DNA of 4,242 nucleotides, from IMG/VR virus record IMGVR_UViG_2541047441_000007; one strand, written 5' to 3'. A model generated the notes under the pieces. The model did not search any database. It worked only from the letters and a program-made list of their open reading frames with translations, and was not told the DNA's origin. Positions within the stretch are counted from its first letter, which is position 1. The number at the start of each line of letters is the position of its first letter. The stretch is from a virus (taxonomy: Duplodnaviria; Heunggongvirae; Uroviricota; Caudoviricetes). This document shows positions 1-4,242 of the stretch, in pieces. The position numbers and the translations under genes were made by a program.

Positions 1-12
1 CAGGAATACGAG

Positions 13-38
13 CGCCGGAAGGCGGCTGGTTTTGTTTG
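13..38 (+). terminator. Possible weak intrinsic terminator for an upstream gene outside the window
   Basis: Short GC stem (CGCC 13-16 / GGCG 21-24, loop GGAA) followed by a T-rich tract (TGGTTTTGTTTG, 27-38). The stem is only 4-5 bp, so this is weak. Confidence 0.25.
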
Positions 39-72
39 AATCTGAGAAACGATTTTGTCGGAGGAAATTTTA

Positions 73-789
73 ATGGAAACCGTATCTGACGCACTGAAAG
101 CACTGAAAAGAGCCTCTTCACATGTGGTGGCAGCTCGCCTTGGAATTAGTCGTGAAGAGGCTGTCAACGAACTGTGGAAACTGAAACGCCGTGGAGAAGC
201 GGATAACAAGGGGGCGATATGGTGGCTGACTCAGGCTGGTGAAAGTGAACCGGTGTCACCGGTACCGAAAGTGACGGCGCAAATGCTGACAGAGGCGATT
301 GAACAACATGGCCCACAAACGGCGGATGAACTGGCATTGATGTTCGGAATTACCTCCCGCCGGGCGAATTCATCGCTGGCAATGGCAATCAGCAAAGGGT
401 GTCTGATTCGCGTGAATCAGGATGGTAAATTTCGTTACTGCATACCGGGCGTTGATTTACCGGCAGAGCCGAAAGCAGCATCCGTAGCTGAAACGGAGGG
501 TAAAGCCCTTCCTCAGCCAGCTGGTGTTGCGTTACCAGTCCAGGAAACGGCTGCACAGGAAGAAATTAAAACAGAAGCGGTGGAGGACATTGTGAAGTTG
601 CAGCAATCGTTCACTGAAGCGAAAGCAGATGACCTGATTCTACCATCGCTGCATGTGGCTAACCGCGAGCTGCGCCGGGCGAAAAGTAATGTTCAGAAGT
701 GGGAGCGAGTCTGTGCTGCGCTACGGGAACTGAACAAACACAGGGATATTCTCCGGGATATTACCGCCACCAGAGAGCAGCAGCGGTGA
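73..789 (+). CDS. Hypothetical prophage protein with two tandem winged-helix-like repeats and a charged, helical C-terminal region
   Basis: ATG at 73 preceded by GGAGGAA (59-65) at 7 nt spacing; the ORF-track start at 55 is a TTG without a better SD. Two similar segments (approx. aa 10-60 and 75-135 of the track ORF) each look like a wHTH: ...[21 protein letters not shown]... and ...[27 protein letters not shown].... TGA stop at 787-789 overlaps the next start. Confidence 0.7.
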
Positions 790-1103
790 GTGGCTGGAAG
801 AAGTGGCGCTGGGCTGAAATCCTGATACTCCGGCAGTGTGCGGGAACGATGAGAGTCGAAAGCATCGGTTATCTGATTGGCCGTAGTGAGTCAGCCGTCA
901 GGACGAAAGCGCGGGAACTGGGTATCAGCATGATGTTACGGGGTGATTATCACCAGTCAGCCAAATGTTCACAGCGTGATATTGAGCTGGCGTGGCAACT
1001 GCATCAGCGTGGTGTACCCCGACGGGAAATTGCCGAAAAGTTTGGGATGAAGTTGGGCGCAGTGAATAACTACGTTTATTTCGACAGGAGGGTTCAGGAG
1101 TGA
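786..1103 (+). CDS. Small protein with two HTH-like repeats (putative DNA-binding protein)
   Basis: GTG at 786 overlaps the upstream TGA (787-789), a coupling arrangement. An alternative ATG at 849 lacks a clear SD. Two internal repeats ([30 protein letters not shown] and [29 protein letters not shown]) are only both complete if translation starts at or near 786. Stop TGA at 1101-1103. Confidence 0.6.
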
Positions 1104-1402
1104 GGGTGAGGGTTTATATCGCCGGTCCGATGACGGGATATGAAAATTTTAACCGCGAGGCATTTCACAAAACGGAAGAGGTGCTGAAACGGGAAGGGCA
1201 TACCGTTTTAAACCCGGCAGTACTTCCGGACGGGCTGACTCAGCCACACTACATGGATATTTGCATGGCAATGCTCCGTTGCGTGGATGCGGTTTACATG
1301 CTGAAAGGCTGGCAGCAGTCGGCAGGTGCAGGGGCTGAGCTGGCACTGGAGGAGAAACCGGGCCATGCGGTGATTTTTCAGGAGGTGGGCAGTGAATATT
1401 GA
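1100..1402 (+). CDS. DUF4406 family protein (nucleoside 2-deoxyribosyltransferase-like fold)
   Basis: N-terminus (M/V)[39 protein letters not shown] matches the characteristic VYIAGPMTG...NF...F......L...GH.V.NP signature of DUF4406/deoxyribosyltransferase-like phage proteins (recognised from memory). GTG at 1100 overlaps the upstream stop; GTG at 1106 with AGGAG (1096-1100) is an equally plausible start. Confidence 0.8.
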   Translation: MRVRVYIAGPMTGYENFNREAFHKTEEVLKREGHTVLNPAVLPDGLTQPHYMDICMAMLRCVDAVYMLKGWQQSAGAGAELALEEKPGHAVIFQEVGSEY

Positions 1403-1709
1403 CCCGGCGATAACGATTGATATGGCCCTGAACGCCGGCCTGGCACTTCTTGGTTATTTCTACATTATGTTCTGCAGCGGACGATGGCTGTCACTGTTGT
1501 TCATGAAAAAATGGAATAAACGCCGTAAGCAGGAGCAACGCCAGAAGGCAATGGATGCATTTTTCGAAGCCTTCGGAATTGACGGCATGGAACCAGGGGA
1601 TCCAGCTCGCGCAATCAGCAGAGGGGGTGTAGTAATCCTTGTATATCGGAGTGAAGAGAAAAATGACGATCACAAAACAACGTGTAGAAGAAATCATATC
1701 CCGCATTGA
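1392..1709 (+). CDS. Hypothetical small membrane protein (one predicted TM helix followed by a basic stretch)
   Basis: GTG at 1392 preceded by GGAGGTG (1381-1387); overlaps the upstream gene by 11 nt. Hydrophobic segment ALNAGLALLGYFYIMFCSGRWLSLLFM followed by KKWNKRRKQEQRQK. The 3' end overlaps the next gene by 47 nt, so the true C-terminus and extent are uncertain. Confidence 0.5.
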   Translation: MNIDPAITIDMALNAGLALLGYFYIMFCSGRWLSLLFMKKWNKRRKQEQRQKAMDAFFEAFGIDGMEPGDPARAISRGGVVILVYRSEEKNDDHKTTCRRNHIPH

Positions 1710-1980
1710 AATGTATGGACATGGTGCAGGGTATATCGCAGACGAGGTTAATGATCTGGCTATACTGGCGCTGAATTTATCAAATATCGCGAACCTGAAG
1801 CGATACGAGCTTGATATGGGAGGTTGCGACTCGTGCGGTCAGGATTGTGGCGCTGATATGACTGAAGATCCTGATGGTGATTATGTCCTGTTTGATGACG
1901 TGGTTAAGTTGTTTGAATTTGATACAACCACTCAAAAGTTAGAAATCCCGGCAAAGGAGGCAGCCAGTGGGCAAGATTGA
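1663..1980 (+). CDS. Hypothetical acidic prophage protein with a Cys cluster (GGCDSCGQDCG)
   Basis: ATG at 1663 with GGAG/GAAGAG upstream (1648-1658). The track start at 1639 is TTG, and ATG 1711 is another possible start. The protein is strongly acidic with a C-x2-C-x3-C motif. Stop TGA at 1978-1980. Confidence 0.55.
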   Translation: MTITKQRVEEIISRIEMYGHGAGYIADEVNDLAILALNLSNIANLKRYELDMGGCDSCGQDCGADMTEDPDGDYVLFDDVVKLFEFDTTTQKLEIPAKEAASGQD

Positions 1981-2404
1981 CTATCAGGCACTGCGTGAGG
2001 CAGCACAAAACTATCAATCGACGCTGGCGTGGTATCAGGCTACCCCGGACAGCCCAAATGCTGAACGGGATTGTGATGCGGCTCTTGCTGCGTTTAAGCG
2101 TCACATCCGTCATCGGGAAGCGGATATTATCGCTGATTTGCTGGATGGACTGGAAGAAGCAAAATCACAACTCAACGAGCAGCGTGAGTATTACGAAGGC
2201 GTTATCTCTGATGGGAGCAAGCGTATTGCTGAACTGGAAGCGCGGGAAGTTCAATTACCGACTCGCTACGACCTTCGATATGGACACCCGATAAATGCAG
2301 ATGAGCGACATGTCATGATACCTAAAGAAAATGGCAGTTGGCTTTACCTGATTGACCTAGAACACGCATTACGCGTCGCTGGCATTCGCATCAAAGGAGA
2401 GTGA
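1967..2404 (+). CDS. Hypothetical prophage protein (helical N-terminal half; possibly ead/Ea22-like, unverified)
   Basis: GTG at 1967 preceded by AAGGAGG (1954-1960) at 6 nt spacing; overlaps the upstream gene end. This is the longest ORF in the region and outcompetes the alternative-frame ORF 1977-2294. Stop TGA at 2402-2404. Confidence 0.65.
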   Translation: MGKIDYQALREAAQNYQSTLAWYQATPDSPNAERDCDAALAAFKRHIRHREADIIADLLDGLEEAKSQLNEQREYYEGVISDGSKRIAELEAREVQLPTRYDLRYGHPINADERHVMIPKENGSWLYLIDLEHALRVAGIRIKGE

Positions 2405-2405
2405 G

Positions 2406-2597
2406 ATGAACGGACAAATATCAATTGTTCGACCAGGAGCATGTGACGATCGCGAAATACGAATGATTATTCGTCTGGCGATGGGGAAAACAATAACTGC
2501 TCTCATTACTCCAGAAAATCTCGCATTAGCATTAACAGGAAAGTCAGACATGCCAGTAGAGCTAAAGCTGCGAAATGTTGAGATTAAGGTGAAATAG
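2406..2597 (+). CDS. Hypothetical small protein (63 aa)
   Basis: ATG at 2406 one nt after the upstream stop, with GGAG at 2396-2399. Stop TAG at 2595-2597. Confidence 0.55.
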   Translation: MNGQISIVRPGACDDREIRMIIRLAMGKTITALITPENLALALTGKSDMPVELKLRNVEIKVK

Positions 2598-2599
2598 CT

Positions 2600-3157
2600 A
2601 TGACCACTATTACCAAAGATCGACTGCTGACAATCCAGCATTGGCGCGAAACATACGGACCGGGTAGCAACGTTGTGCTTCCAGCAGAAGAAGCGGAAGA
2701 GCTGGCACGGATTGCGCTGGCATCACTGGCAGCAGTATCGGATGAACGAGCAGCCTATGAATTATTTATGGAGAAGCGTTTCGGAGAATCTGTAGATCGC
2801 CGCAGAGCAAAAAATGGCGATAGAGATTACATGGTATGGGATATGGCGCTTGGCTGGATTATCTGGTGTCACCGCGCCGCCATGCTTCAGGCTGGAAACT
2901 TTCGGGAAAATAAGGGTTCGTCAACCAATAATTTTCGGATAATCTCGGAAACGTCAACCAACTCTCCGGCAATCCCTGATGAGGTGTTGTCCGCAATCCT
3001 GAAGGTCGCCAGGCTTCGTGCAGATTTCGATGCTTCTGAAGTGGACAGGCGAGGTATCGGTAGTTGTCTGGATGAGGCCGAGCAAGAACTTATCGTTACC
3101 ATTAACGAATACGCCAGTCAGATCGCAGTAGAAGCGACACAGGGGGAGAACCAATGA
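2600..3157 (+). CDS. Hypothetical prophage protein (185 aa; possibly ead/Ea22-like, unverified)
   Basis: ATG at 2600 preceded by AAGGTGA (2586-2592), 2 nt after the upstream stop. Stop TGA at 3155-3157 overlaps the next start (ATGA). Confidence 0.65.
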   Translation: MTTITKDRLLTIQHWRETYGPGSNVVLPAEEAEELARIALASLAAVSDERAAYELFMEKRFGESVDRRRAKNGDRDYMVWDMALGWIIWCHRAAMLQAGNFRENKGSSTNNFRIISETSTNSPAIPDEVLSAILKVARLRADFDASEVDRRGIGSCLDEAEQELIVTINEYASQIAVEATQGENQ

Positions 3158-3231
3158 GCCGGCCAGATGCATTTGCAGGCGTTGCTATAGCTATTGCTTT
3201 TCTAGTATATGTTATTTGTCGGTGGGGGTAA
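3154..3231 (+). CDS. Unannotated 25-aa hydrophobic mini-protein (MSRPDAFAGVAIAIAFLVYVICRWG), predicted single TM helix
   Basis: ATG 3154 overlaps the upstream TGA (ATGA). Strong SD AGGGGGAG (3141-3148) at 5 nt spacing. Hydrophobic core AFAGVAIAIAFLVYVI. TAA stop at 3229-3231. Absent from the ORF track because of the length cutoff. Confidence 0.5.
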   Translation: MSRPDAFAGVAIAIAFLVYVICRWG

Positions 3232-3266
3232 AAACGTTCGCCGGGATTCACACCAAAGGAGGGAAT

Positions 3267-3371
3267 ATGTCGGATGATATTTCACTGGCAATGGAAGGCG
3301 CTCTGGCTGTTATTGCTGTTGTGGGTGTTTACTGCCTGGTTGTGTTTTTGATGGAGCGCCTGGGGAACTGA
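3267..3371 (+). CDS. Unannotated 34-aa hydrophobic mini-protein (MSDDISLAMEGALAVIAVVGVYCLVVFLMERLGN), predicted single TM helix
   Basis: ATG 3267 preceded by a near-consensus SD AAGGAGGG (3256-3263). Acidic N-terminus, then a 20-residue hydrophobic stretch, then a charged tail. TGA stop at 3369-3371. Confidence 0.55.
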   Translation: MSDDISLAMEGALAVIAVVGVYCLVVFLMERLGN

Positions 3372-3381
3372 ATTCATTCCG

Positions 3382-3397
3382 TATGGGAATTCCCATA
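3382..3397. promoter_or_regulatory. Perfect 16-bp palindrome TATGGGAATTCCCATA; candidate operator or hairpin between the mini-protein genes and the hok promoter
   Basis: The sequence equals its own reverse complement. It lies 10 bp after the 34-aa ORF stop and 14 bp upstream of the predicted hok -35. As RNA it could form a 6-bp stem with an AAUU loop, but no U-tract follows. Confidence 0.4.
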
Positions 3398-3411
3398 TCG
3401 GGCAAAACGGT

Positions 3412-3439
3412 TTGCTGTAAAGCGAGAGTTAAGTAGAAT
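3412..3439 (+). promoter_or_regulatory. Predicted sigma70 promoter of the hok/mok mRNA
   Basis: -35 TTGCTG (3412-3417), 16-nt spacer, -10 TAGAAT (3434-3439). The predicted start (~3446, GGGUGCUUGAGG...) matches the conserved 5' end of hok-family mRNAs as I recall it from plasmid R1. Confidence 0.6.
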
Positions 3440-3491
3440 TGCTGCGGGTGCTTGAGGCTGTCTGCCTCGGGCATGCCACCGTAAGGCAGAC

Positions 3492-3566
3492 AGAGAAAAG
3501 CCCCAGTTAACATTACGCGTCCTGCAAGACGCTTAACATTAATCTGAGGCCCAATCTATGCTTCAC
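3492..3566 (-). ncRNA. sok: Sok-like antisense RNA (type I antitoxin), predicted
   Basis: Antisense to the hok mRNA leader and the mok start codon (3558-3560). On the minus strand an imperfect 16-bp hairpin (complement of 3506-3543) is followed by GGGGCUUUUCUCU. Position and layout parallel R1 Sok. The ends are approximate. Confidence 0.5.
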
Positions 3567-3770
3567 AAACGTAGGTTAGCCTCTTACGCGCCGAAAGGCA
3601 AGGAGAAGCAGGTTATGAAGCAGCAAAAGGCGATGTTAATCGCCCTGATCGTCATCTGTTTAACCGTCATAGTGACGGCACTGGTAACGAGGAAAGACCT
3701 CTGCGAGGTACGAATCCGAACCGGCCAGACGGAGGTCGCTGTCTTCGTAGACTACGAATCTGAGAAGTAA
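3558..3770 (+). CDS. mok: mok-like reading frame (modulator of killing) overlapping hok, here in frame with hok
   Basis: ATG at 3558 opens an ORF that continues in frame through hok. The leader sequence AGCCUCUUACGCGCCGAAAGGCAAGGAGAAGCAGGUUAUG resembles the R1 mok/hok junction. Whether it is translated as a separate product is unknown. Confidence 0.5.
   Translation: MLHKRRLASYAPKGKEKQVMKQQKAMLIALIVICLTVIVTALVTRKDLCEVRIRTGQTEVAVFVDYESEK
3573..3601 (-). promoter_or_regulatory. Predicted promoter of the Sok-like antisense RNA
   Basis: On the minus strand: -35 TTGCCT (plus 3601-3596), 17-nt spacer, -10 TAACCT (plus 3578-3573). This puts the start at ~3566-3565, inside the 5' end of mok, the same layout as R1 sok (TTGCGC / TATCCT from memory). 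Confidence 0.45.
3615..3770 (+). CDS. hok: Hok/Gef family type I toxin (51 aa, small membrane toxin)
   Basis: Translation MKQQKAMLIALIVICLTVIVTALVTRKDLCEVRIRTGQTEVAVFVDYESEK is near-identical to chromosomal Hok/Gef proteins as recalled (HokD/RelF, HokC/Gef). ATG 3615 with GGAG at 3602-3605; TAA stop at 3768-3770. Confidence 0.9.
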   Translation: MKQQKAMLIALIVICLTVIVTALVTRKDLCEVRIRTGQTEVAVFVDYESEK

Positions 3771-3819
3771 GAGACCAAGCGGGGGAGTAATCTCCCGCCA
3801 CCTCTGATGTGTCAGGCAT

Positions 3820-3834
3820 CCTCAACGCACCCGC
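3820..3834 (+). other. Fold-back-inhibition (fbi)-like 3' element of the hok mRNA
   Basis: CCUCAACGCACCCGC (3820-3834) is complementary to the predicted 5' end GCGGGUGCUUGAGG (3444-3457) with a single bulged C, as expected for 5'-3' pairing in hok mRNAs. A separate hairpin lies at 3779-3799. Confidence 0.55.
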
Positions 3835-3889
3835 GCTTTACCATACTGAAAATGCTGTTTGAATGTTCATCTCTGAAAGAGGACTATGA

Positions 3890-4234
3890 ATGAAAAAGGT
3901 ATTGATTGCAGCACTTATTTCTGGTGTGTCTTTTGGCGCTTTTGCACAGCAGGGCGGTTTCCAAGGGCCTGAAGCAGAGCGTTCAACAGTAGCGCAGGCA
4001 AAAGAACTGAAGGATGATGCATGGGTTATCCTTGAAGGGAGCATCGTTAAAAAAGTGGGTGATGAACGTTATGAGTTTCGTGACAATAGCGGGACAATTG
4101 TCACGGATATCGATGACAGCATATGGGCCGGTCAGAATGTTTCTCCGAAAGACAAAGTAAGAATTGAGGGTGAAATTGATAAAGACCTGAGCAGTGTTGA
4201 AGTGGATGTAAAGGCACTGAAATTATTAAAGTAA
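3890..4234 (+). CDS. YgiW/YdeI (BOF) family periplasmic OB-fold protein with N-terminal signal peptide
   Basis: ATG 3890 preceded by AAAGAGGA (3877-3884). Signal peptide MKKVLIAALISGVSFGAFA with a likely cleavage after AFA. The mature part (...AWVILEGSIVKKVGDERYEFRDNSGTIVTDIDD...VRIEGEIDKD...VEVDVKALKLLK) fits the BOF/YgiW pattern from memory. TAA stop at 4232-4234. Confidence 0.85.
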   Translation: MKKVLIAALISGVSFGAFAQQGGFQGPEAERSTVAQAKELKDDAWVILEGSIVKKVGDERYEFRDNSGTIVTDIDDSIWAGQNVSPKDKVRIEGEIDKDLSSVEVDVKALKLLK

Positions 4235-4242
4235 CCGTCCCT

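Follow-up and report, generated by a model that had tools for sequence, protein, structure and literature searches.

A palindrome upstream of a phage hok module is probably a relic of a stem-loop conserved in KilA-N genes

Introduction

Stem-loop motifs at the borders of shuffled modules are known from T4-type phages, where they form the promoter-early stem-loop (PeSL) cassettes (PMC2839356, PMC4122927). This study concerns 4,242 nucleotides (nt) of Caudoviricetes DNA (IMG/VR record IMGVR_UViG_2541047441_000007; the whole stretch is hereafter called the window), in which a perfect 16-bp palindrome, TATGGGAATTCCCATA, stands between ORF34, the last open reading frame (ORF) of an upstream operon, and a hok/sok toxin-antitoxin module. 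With moderate confidence, we propose that this palindrome is the relic of a KilA-N gene left at a recombination joint, and that it is at most a passive hairpin.

PeSL cassettes are the nearest functional analogy. Like them, the element described here is a short conserved stem-loop that, in mosaic genomes, recurs between early genes of small size and where exchanged modules meet. Unlike PeSLs, which are promoter-plus-terminator composites present many times per genome and only in T4-like myoviruses, it is a bare hairpin of 22-26 bp with neither promoter nor U-tract, one copy per prophage region is usual, and it resides chiefly within a protein-coding gene, KilA-N. The stem-loop at module borders is shared with PeSL cassettes, while the promoter-terminator composite and the many copies are not, with 1-8 sites per E. 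coli genome.

Similarly to intercistronic mRNA-stabilising hairpins and to the repetitive extragenic palindromic (REP) and bacterial interspersed mosaic (BIME) elements, the palindrome gives a hairpin free of a U-tract just past a stop codon in an operon. REP elements are imperfect, about 35 bp long, present in hundreds per chromosome and built on another consensus; unlike REP and BIME, the palindrome sequence is restricted to phages and prophages, in the low copy number given above. The operators of lambdoid repressors, such as OR and OL of lambda, 434 and P22, are arranged in sets overlapping the promoter under their control, and their repressor is found with them. The palindrome shares with them the dyad symmetry and the closeness to a promoter, but it is a single site at variable spacing with no cognate protein, and it is missing from most copies of the promoter. 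In addition, the palindrome physically adjoins a bona fide hok/mok/sok locus. The cis elements controlling hok (tac, fbi, ucb/dcb, the Sok target and the mok frame; RF01794) all lie within the hok transcript, whereas the palindrome lies 44-68 nt 5′ of the transcript start, outside both the RF01794 match, which begins at 3446, and the hok module, which begins at 3404; it is neither within the hok transcript nor conserved with it.

Quasi-palindrome correction, namely intrastrand template switching, is an established mutational mechanism that could keep the arms of such an element complementary and yield double 'compensatory' changes without selection. It fails to explain the fixed left-arm sequence and codon register over KilA-N genes of 22-63% guanine plus cytosine (GC), or why only the loop is free to vary.

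Results

The palindrome belongs to a longer hairpin

The palindrome and the features that overlap or adjoin it are as follows.

3382-3397, no strand assigned: perfect 16-bp palindrome TATGGGAATTCCCATA, read from the sequence
3378-3402, no strand assigned: full hairpin element with a 10-bp stem, a bulged U3398 (plus strand) and the loop AAUU, based on the fold and on relatives
3369-3376, no strand assigned: small second palindrome TGAATTCA, which holds the ORF34 stop TGA and lies within the putative KilA-N fragment
3355-3402, minus strand: probable antisense KilA-N fragment, reading D-M-G-I-P-I and then decayed ...SELIQSF... codons; the outer limit of about 3355 is approximate

A preliminary description of this DNA had reported the 16-bp palindrome and its placement between the ORF34 stop and the -35 of hok, and the sequence confirmed both, with the stop codon at 3369-3371 and TTGCTG at 3412-3417. 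A scan of the window found no other palindrome with arms of at least 6 nt, the runner-up being 10 bp long. The additional remark that such a palindrome is unlikely by chance in 4 kb turned out to be only weakly true, as palindromes of at least 16 bp arose in 5.6% of 3000 dinucleotide-preserving shuffles of the window; the longer forms in relatives are the stronger sign of non-randomness. A bare 16-bp palindrome is weak evidence by itself, and the case rests on the comparison with related sequences.

The 25-nt hairpin at 3378-3402 folds at -12.8 kcal/mol on the plus strand and -12.6 kcal/mol on the minus strand, with a z score of about -3 (-2.9). The window copy is a one-base-deletion derivative whose left arm lacks the A after G3381. 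The small second palindrome, TGAATTCA, is kept in all loci of the window type and the paa type. The sequence 3′ of the hairpin is GGGCAAAACGG on the plus strand and CGGAATGAATTC on the minus strand, and a U-tract is present on neither. An intrinsic (Rho-independent) terminator was considered and rejected, given that the stem is stable enough while the U-tract is missing and a terminator scan of 3100-4242 returned 0 terminator-like sites. An Rfam scan of the whole window matched the hok/sok leader only, with no RNA family at the palindrome.

The same stem-loop is conserved inside KilA-N genes

Viral contigs were scanned for the 14-mer core of the palindrome, which was found at hok-upstream sites, at unrelated intergenic sites, and in ORFs encoding ...LSxDMGIPISELIQSFKGG...GTWVHP...AQWLSP.... 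The proteins of these ORFs contain the KilA-N domain (PF04383, E = 1e-20 to 1e-28; PGAP annotation), and the identical 22-24-mer sits inside their genes, where it encodes D-M-G-I-P-I-S. Among 84 core matches outside recognised hok-flank contexts, 30 were perfect over at least 22 bp, against 0.33 expected. In E. coli FDAARGOS_448 (L127), a KilA-N gene with the 24-mer is the divergent neighbour of the hok gene.

Two samples of KilA-N genes, both drawn independently of the motif DNA, were then compared, the first anchored on the peptide [LM][SE]x[DNV]MGIPI and the second on the C-terminal peptides GTW.../AI.LAQWL. All distinct genes of the first sample read ATG-GGR-ATY-CCC-ATA; proline was encoded by CCC in 38/38 cases, compared with 15% of the other prolines in the same ORFs, and the second isoleucine by ATA in 38/38, compared with 27% elsewhere in those ORFs. 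Variation was confined to two third-codon positions of the loop (AATT, GATT, AATC), and the flanking codons co-varied in a manner that lengthens the stem: D..S with CGAT/ATCG, V..T with CGTT/AACG and N..L with CAAT/ATTG. In the second sample, homologues whose motif residues differ still form a hairpin at the same codon register, with changes in both arms, namely TACGGGAATTCCCGTA, in which M to T is paired with I to V; TGTGATGCCGGAATTCCGGCATCACA, in which M to A is paired with I to A; and CCGATACCG-AGATCA-CGGTATCGG, in which the hairpin is kept in a contig of 24% GC.

Covariation was counted over 34 distinct sequences, which are phylogenetically related and were in part ascertained on the 14-mer core. 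Paired cells amounted to 90.9%, against at most 53% when the partners were slid. Both sides changed in 7/10 stem pairs, a level reached by 1/500 shuffles, and the covariation score was 0.217, compared with 0.098 for shuffles (0/500 reaching the observed value) and at most 0.055 for the slid controls. Symmetric covariation would equally be expected of a co-evolving dimeric binding site, and template-switch correction could make some of the paired changes without selection.

Across the KilA-N genes collected (L216-L295 and L380-L459; contigs of 22-63% GC), a stem-loop with a 9-13-bp stem lies at the D-M-G-I-P-I-S codons and shows compensatory changes that alter amino acids; in L453, L454 and L452 it stands about 40-80 nt 5′ of the GTW codons. 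The hairpin-bearing KilA-N protein of L452, a GVMAG contig of 24% GC, also has a weak C-terminal match to a GIY-YIG nuclease (20.9 bits, below the cutoff), and such a tail would be a homing-endonuclease-like architecture. A search of the available literature library, which is incomplete, returned no description of the palindrome sequence or of a conserved hairpin in KilA-N genes, and the stem-loop is a deeply conserved feature of these genes that had apparently gone undescribed.

The window copy probably retains a KilA-N gene fragment

Sister loci match the element CGATATGGG-NNNN-CCCATATCG at 22/22 positions, and the window copy is the same bar the one deleted base. The flanks beyond the 26-mer were compared with KilA-N genes in both orientations. 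The flank facing away from hok resembles the reverse complement of the KilA-N codons that follow the motif (ISELIQSFKGG), with 19-20/30 identities in the hok loci of ORF6N type (p about 1e-5 to 1e-6) and 18/30 in L043, where the element lies between cro-like and cII-like genes. Unanchored local alignment also supported the ORF6N-type loci and L043 (z about 3.3-3.4). On the hok-proximal side the identity was at the random level, 7-9/30, in all locus types. The KilA-N-like fragment contains the stop codon of ORF34 as well as that of the ORF6N gene.

The window contains no KilA-N ORF, and the minus-strand frame runs into stops or a frameshift after the motif; accordingly, judged from sequence, the window copy is a probable fragment of a KilA-N gene and not an intact gene. 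A longer remnant, made up of the ORF34 antisense strand and the hok promoter (tblastn E = 0.043), was rejected because its frame exists only in the deletion variant and enters sequence present in all hok loci.

The palindrome lies outside the hok module

The genes and signals on both sides of the palindrome are listed here.

3267-3371, plus strand: ORF34, encoding a hydrophobic peptide of 34 residues; it closes the upstream operon and carries the annotation hypothetical protein WP_001278460/WP_001278454
3404-3445, plus strand: left end of the conserved hok module and promoter, with the -35-like TTGCTG at 3412-3417 and the -10 TAGAAT at 3434-3439, the hexamers being read from the sequence
3446-3620, plus strand: hok mRNA leader with the tac, ucb and Sok-target structures (Rfam RF01794 'sok', cmscan 114.9 bits, E = 1.4e-26)
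3558-3770, plus strand: mok frame of 70 residues, overlapping hok at 3615-3770 (51 residues); annotated as hokD / Hok-Gef family, also by tblastn

From the ORF34 stop there are 6 nt to the extended hairpin (3378) and 10 nt to the perfect palindrome (3382), and the centre of the palindrome lies about 57 nt 5′ of the hok transcript start (3446). A consensus promoter scan did not call the hok promoter, of which the -35 matches 3/6 bases only.

In a BLAST search of 3150-3800 against 5,426 complete E. coli genomes, most hok homology started at query positions 255-297, that is, from window position 3404 onward, and the palindrome region was covered in only 660 of these genomes. The module homology of L004 likewise starts at about 3404. 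In VT2-Sakai, which carries hokW-sokW on Sp5, the homology of 97% also begins at 3404, and there a gene for an ORF25-like peptide abuts the promoter and the palindrome is absent. The hokW-sokW of Sp5 is an experimentally working type I toxin-antitoxin system (PMC8621323). Moreover, when 120 hok loci were drawn from IMG/VR by the hok promoter and tac sequence alone, the palindrome was present in 44/120; the remainder had no comparable hairpin, their best arms being 4-6 nt. A second hok-promoter scan, of genome contigs, gave 4 loci only and no addition.

Separately, 125 homologous loci were sampled through flanking sequences only, so that the sampling was blind to the state of the palindrome. 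They comprised 68 loci with a 22-bp form, 19 with a 24-bp form, 9 with a 26-bp form and 24 with the one-base-deletion form of the window, besides rare variants with one loop change or with two C-to-T changes that leave G.U pairs on the plus strand. The perfect 22-bp form, CGATATGGGAATTCCCATATCG, occurs in prophages with the same ORF34-hok arrangement, while others have the 24-bp form or the 26-bp form, TCCGATATGGGAATTCCCATATCGGA; these perfect 22-26-bp forms fold at -14.5 to -19.2 kcal/mol. Taken over the flank-anchored and promoter-anchored samples, the hok-upstream variants comprise the loops GATT, AATC and CATT, one bulge, and the two C-to-T changes with G.U on the plus strand.

The gene 5′ of the palindrome at hok loci is ORF34, a paa adhesin gene or an ORF6N-domain gene, and the distance from the palindrome centre to the transcript start is 56-58 nt in the ORF34-type and paa-type loci and 75-77 nt in the ORF6N-type loci. 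The shorter spacing plausibly arose from the longer one when about 20 nt between GGG runs were lost; the stretch deleted in the short-spacing loci (..CTGGGGAT) is part of the hok module in many palindrome-free loci. In two recombinant haplotypes, h9 and h8 (L162 and L158), the left and right flanks are of different types, and the change between them falls at or beside the palindrome. In many hok loci (L300-L379), the module extends to the left with GCCGCTGGGGATAAA, about 20-45 nt 5′ of the hok -10, as in TTGCCGCTGGGGATAAAAACGG. GCCGCTGGGGATAAA resembles the 3′ half of the E. coli type I-E clustered regularly interspaced short palindromic repeat (CRISPR) sequence, GCCAGCGGGGATAAACCG, and the resemblance may be coincidence.

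Free-standing copies occur at other phage loci

The sequence is restricted to phages and prophages, and an E. coli genome has 1-8 sites (2-16 BLAST places, since a palindromic site is counted on both strands). The 22-mer was found with unrelated flanks in at least 6 contexts, with at least 3 different upstream partners at hok. Free-standing copies lie 1-62 nt past stop codons in co-directional gene arrays in L062, L020, L088, L039, L059, L043 and the Dhillonvirus 'rolling'.

In Dhillonvirus coliphages (Teewinot, L126, 37650-37900; 'rolling', L460, 2501-2523), the 22-mer stands 20 nt past the stop codon of the helicase-primase gene. In Teewinot the 22-mer belongs to five tandem 53-bp units beside this gene; the units keep TGGGAATTCCCATATCG with a non-complementary left arm, which suggests that sequence recognition rather than structure is at work there. 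Clustered GCGGGACA repeats follow, and the region has the look of a replication origin or a regulatory array. Teewinot yielded no KilA-N homologue. The idea that the same helix-turn-helix (HTH) protein lies beside the palindrome in the window and in Dhillonvirus was dropped, as the product of window ORF 786-1103 has no similarity to Teewinot gp48.

In L062 (10231-10275), a 26-bp palindrome begins 1 nt past a stop codon. As an alternative to the stem, the 3′ arm (CCATATC) of this palindrome can form pairs with GGATATGG, a stretch overlapping both the ribosome-binding site and the start of the gene that follows; this arrangement suggests a possible translational switch in that phage. The placement between cro-like and cII-like genes in L043 prompted consideration of a nut/boxB-like role, which seems unlikely, as no boxA-like sequence was seen and the nin-region position of the window is unfit. 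Target sites of LAGLIDADG-type or serine-recombinase-type enzymes are palindromes of 22-26 bp, and no gene for such an enzyme was seen nearby.

Discussion

Based on these findings, we propose that the palindrome of the window would be the DNA form of the stem-loop, with a 9-13-bp stem and a 4-nt loop, that is conserved in KilA-N antirepressor-type phage genes. The surviving piece would amount to about 40-50 bp of a KilA-N gene, running antisense to the genes around it and caught between the modules of ORF34 and hok in a mosaic lambdoid nin region. Since the KilA-N homology appears to stop at the hok-side edge of the palindrome, the element may mark a recombination or deletion joint. RNA reading through from the upstream operon would form a hairpin of -13 kcal/mol 6 nt past the ORF34 stop, which could slow 3′ exonucleases or pause RNA polymerase, termination being excluded by the missing U-tract. 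We infer that the hairpin was the site of the joint and that this copy plays no active part in the window; any action it has would be that of a hairpin, not of an operator. For loci of the window type the flank evidence for descent from a KilA-N gene is only suggestive.

Several results weigh against this proposal. In the window-type loci (ORF34 and paa types), the flank identity to KilA-N codons is only 14-15/30, with p about 3e-3 to 8e-3, uncorrected for the about 35 related KilA-N sequences, and the unanchored local alignment is not significant for them (z -0.9 to 0.1). The four major haplotypes show 0 substitutions in the 22-mer, while about 10/27 positions of the spacer to the -35 vary; this conservation beyond the expectation for a neutral relic hints at continuing selection, gene conversion or self-templated correction. 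Furthermore, the exact 22-mer occurs without detectable KilA-N flanks at L062, L088, L006/L053, L039 and Dhillonvirus, in every case intergenic and shortly past a stop codon, and such lone 22-mers fit an autonomous element better than a passive scar.

We regard it as possible, on a tentative footing, that the palindrome is a free-standing copy of the undescribed KilA-N stem-loop with a function of its own, which may be recognition by KilA-N-family or replication proteins or, as a hairpin, the seeding of module exchange. Such a function, if true, would explain why the element persists as a 22-50-nt unit where phage modules meet (5′ of hok, in the gap from cro-like to cII-like genes, and past early genes), why it stays identical amid decayed flanks, and why it is amplified in tandem 53-bp units beside the Dhillonvirus helicase-primase. 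A strictly DNA-level version, wherein a 22-26-bp recognition site (for instance of KilA-N-family proteins) or a hairpin or cruciform seeding module exchange in the manner of PeSL cassettes is kept at junctions and could influence, incidentally or by design, the hok promoter at a distance of 57 nt, seems improbable to us. It would accommodate the identical 22-mers with unrelated flanks, the fact that KilA-N homology breaks off at the edge of the palindrome both in the hok lineage and at L043, the haplotypes that switch type across the palindrome, and the Teewinot repeats with their unpaired left arm. KilA-N is a DNA-binding domain distantly related to APSES/Mbp1, to which weak PDB matches were obtained. 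But neither the window nor the 12.6 kb of the sister prophage L001 holds a second site or half-site, most palindrome-bearing hok loci contain no KilA-N gene, and none was detected in Teewinot; the outer stem varies yet stays complementary across KilA-N lineages, for which structure is a more economical account than many co-evolving proteins, and no supporting literature was found. As for selection at the RNA level, we think it rather unlikely that the hairpin serves in nin-operon read-through or antisense transcripts as a 3′-end protector, processing barrier or pause site, maybe shielding the hok promoter and 5′ end. Stability on both strands, the start 6 nt past the ORF34 stop, the similar placement of other free copies 1-62 nt past stops in co-directional arrays, hok-upstream variants that spare the stem or give G.U on the plus strand, and a 22-mer less variable than the adjoining spacer all agree with such a role. 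It is opposed by the lack of a U-tract and of any terminator call, by sequences too closely related in the hok-upstream context for real covariation, and by a stem of 9-10 bp, below the length of classical ribonuclease III sites. In addition, 63% of the hok loci with the same promoter are hairpin-free, and therefore hok needs no insulation. The preliminary description had also allowed for a hairpin that insulates hok from read-through; a structural hairpin fits the data, and insulation is conceivable, though with neither a U-tract nor a detected terminator.

The favoured suggestion of that description, that a dimeric HTH protein from the same operon controls hok through the palindrome as its operator, is very improbable. 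The dyad is perfect (16 bp, and 22-26 bp in relatives) and centred at about -57 from the hok transcript start, and ORF 786-1103 has weak HTH-like matches. The two proteins put forward as HTH-type are weak candidates, given that ORF 73-789 encodes a DUF1627 protein and that the HTH matches of ORF 786-1103 are below the Pfam threshold; neither ORF co-varies with the palindrome across loci, and the HTH protein beside the Teewinot repeats is unrelated to that of the window. Against the proposal stand the module limit at 3404, a distance to the promoter that is not fixed, and the failure of the palindrome to travel with the promoter (44/120), including its absence from the functional hokW-sokW. The upstream genes differ among carriers (ORF34, paa, ORF6N), and neither extra sites nor a co-occurring cognate regulator was found. 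The preliminary description had looked to further half-sites and to conservation across related loci for a decision; no further ATGGGAAT or TATGGGAA exists in the window or in the 12.6 kb of L001, and the palindrome is absent from 76/120 of the promoter-anchored loci, an absence that the description itself had named among the signs against its reading. The palindrome stands outside hok/sok, and regulation of hok by it is unlikely. A chance palindrome without history or function, as found in 5.6% of shuffled windows, is refuted by the perfect 22-26-bp forms in relatives, the 30 of 84 core matches of at least 22 bp where 0.33 were expected, and the sequence identity with the conserved KilA-N element.

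Returning to the KilA-N relic that we prefer, its interest lies mainly in its source. Among the antirepressor-type genes that phages and large DNA viruses carry, those with KilA-N rank with the most common, and upkeep of their stem-loop appears powerful enough to impose rare codons and even to replace amino acids. A functional stem-loop, if true, would add a new layer of control or mobility for these often toxic genes. The element also offers a tangible marker with which to follow the joining of lambdoid nin-region modules, hok cassettes among them. As regards hok, the finding holds no surprise: hok/sok shows no sign of a protein regulator, which leaves intact the classical view that its control is purely RNA-based. 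What was not expected is that KilA-N genes have a conserved stem-loop and that it recurs in phage genomes as a free unit.

Neighbouring genes of the window

The window (1-4242) is a mosaic in which nin-region genes 3′ of replication gene P (DUF1627, the HTH-like ORF, DUF4406, DUF4752 and Ead/Ea22-like) are joined at 3404 to a hokW-ygiW module, and this module is 97% identical to the copy in the early-left region of the Shiga toxin (Stx) phage VT2-Sakai. The YgiW/BOF gene follows next after mok/hok.

Two small hydrophobic ORFs, of 25 residues (3154-3231) and 34 residues (3267-3371), stand in tandem just 5′ of hok. ORF34 is probably a real membrane peptide, because its haplotype differences are mostly synonymous. 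Minus-strand promoter-like sites at 3291-3264 and 3232-3204 are antisense to the starts of ORF34 and ORF25, which recalls type I toxin-antitoxin loci; promoter-like matches in this region number 3 against 1.6 expected, which is not significant. In one E. coli prophage (L003, 451-1431), an IS5-like ISKpn26 element is inserted just 5′ of ORF34, and the junction region therefore tolerates insertions.

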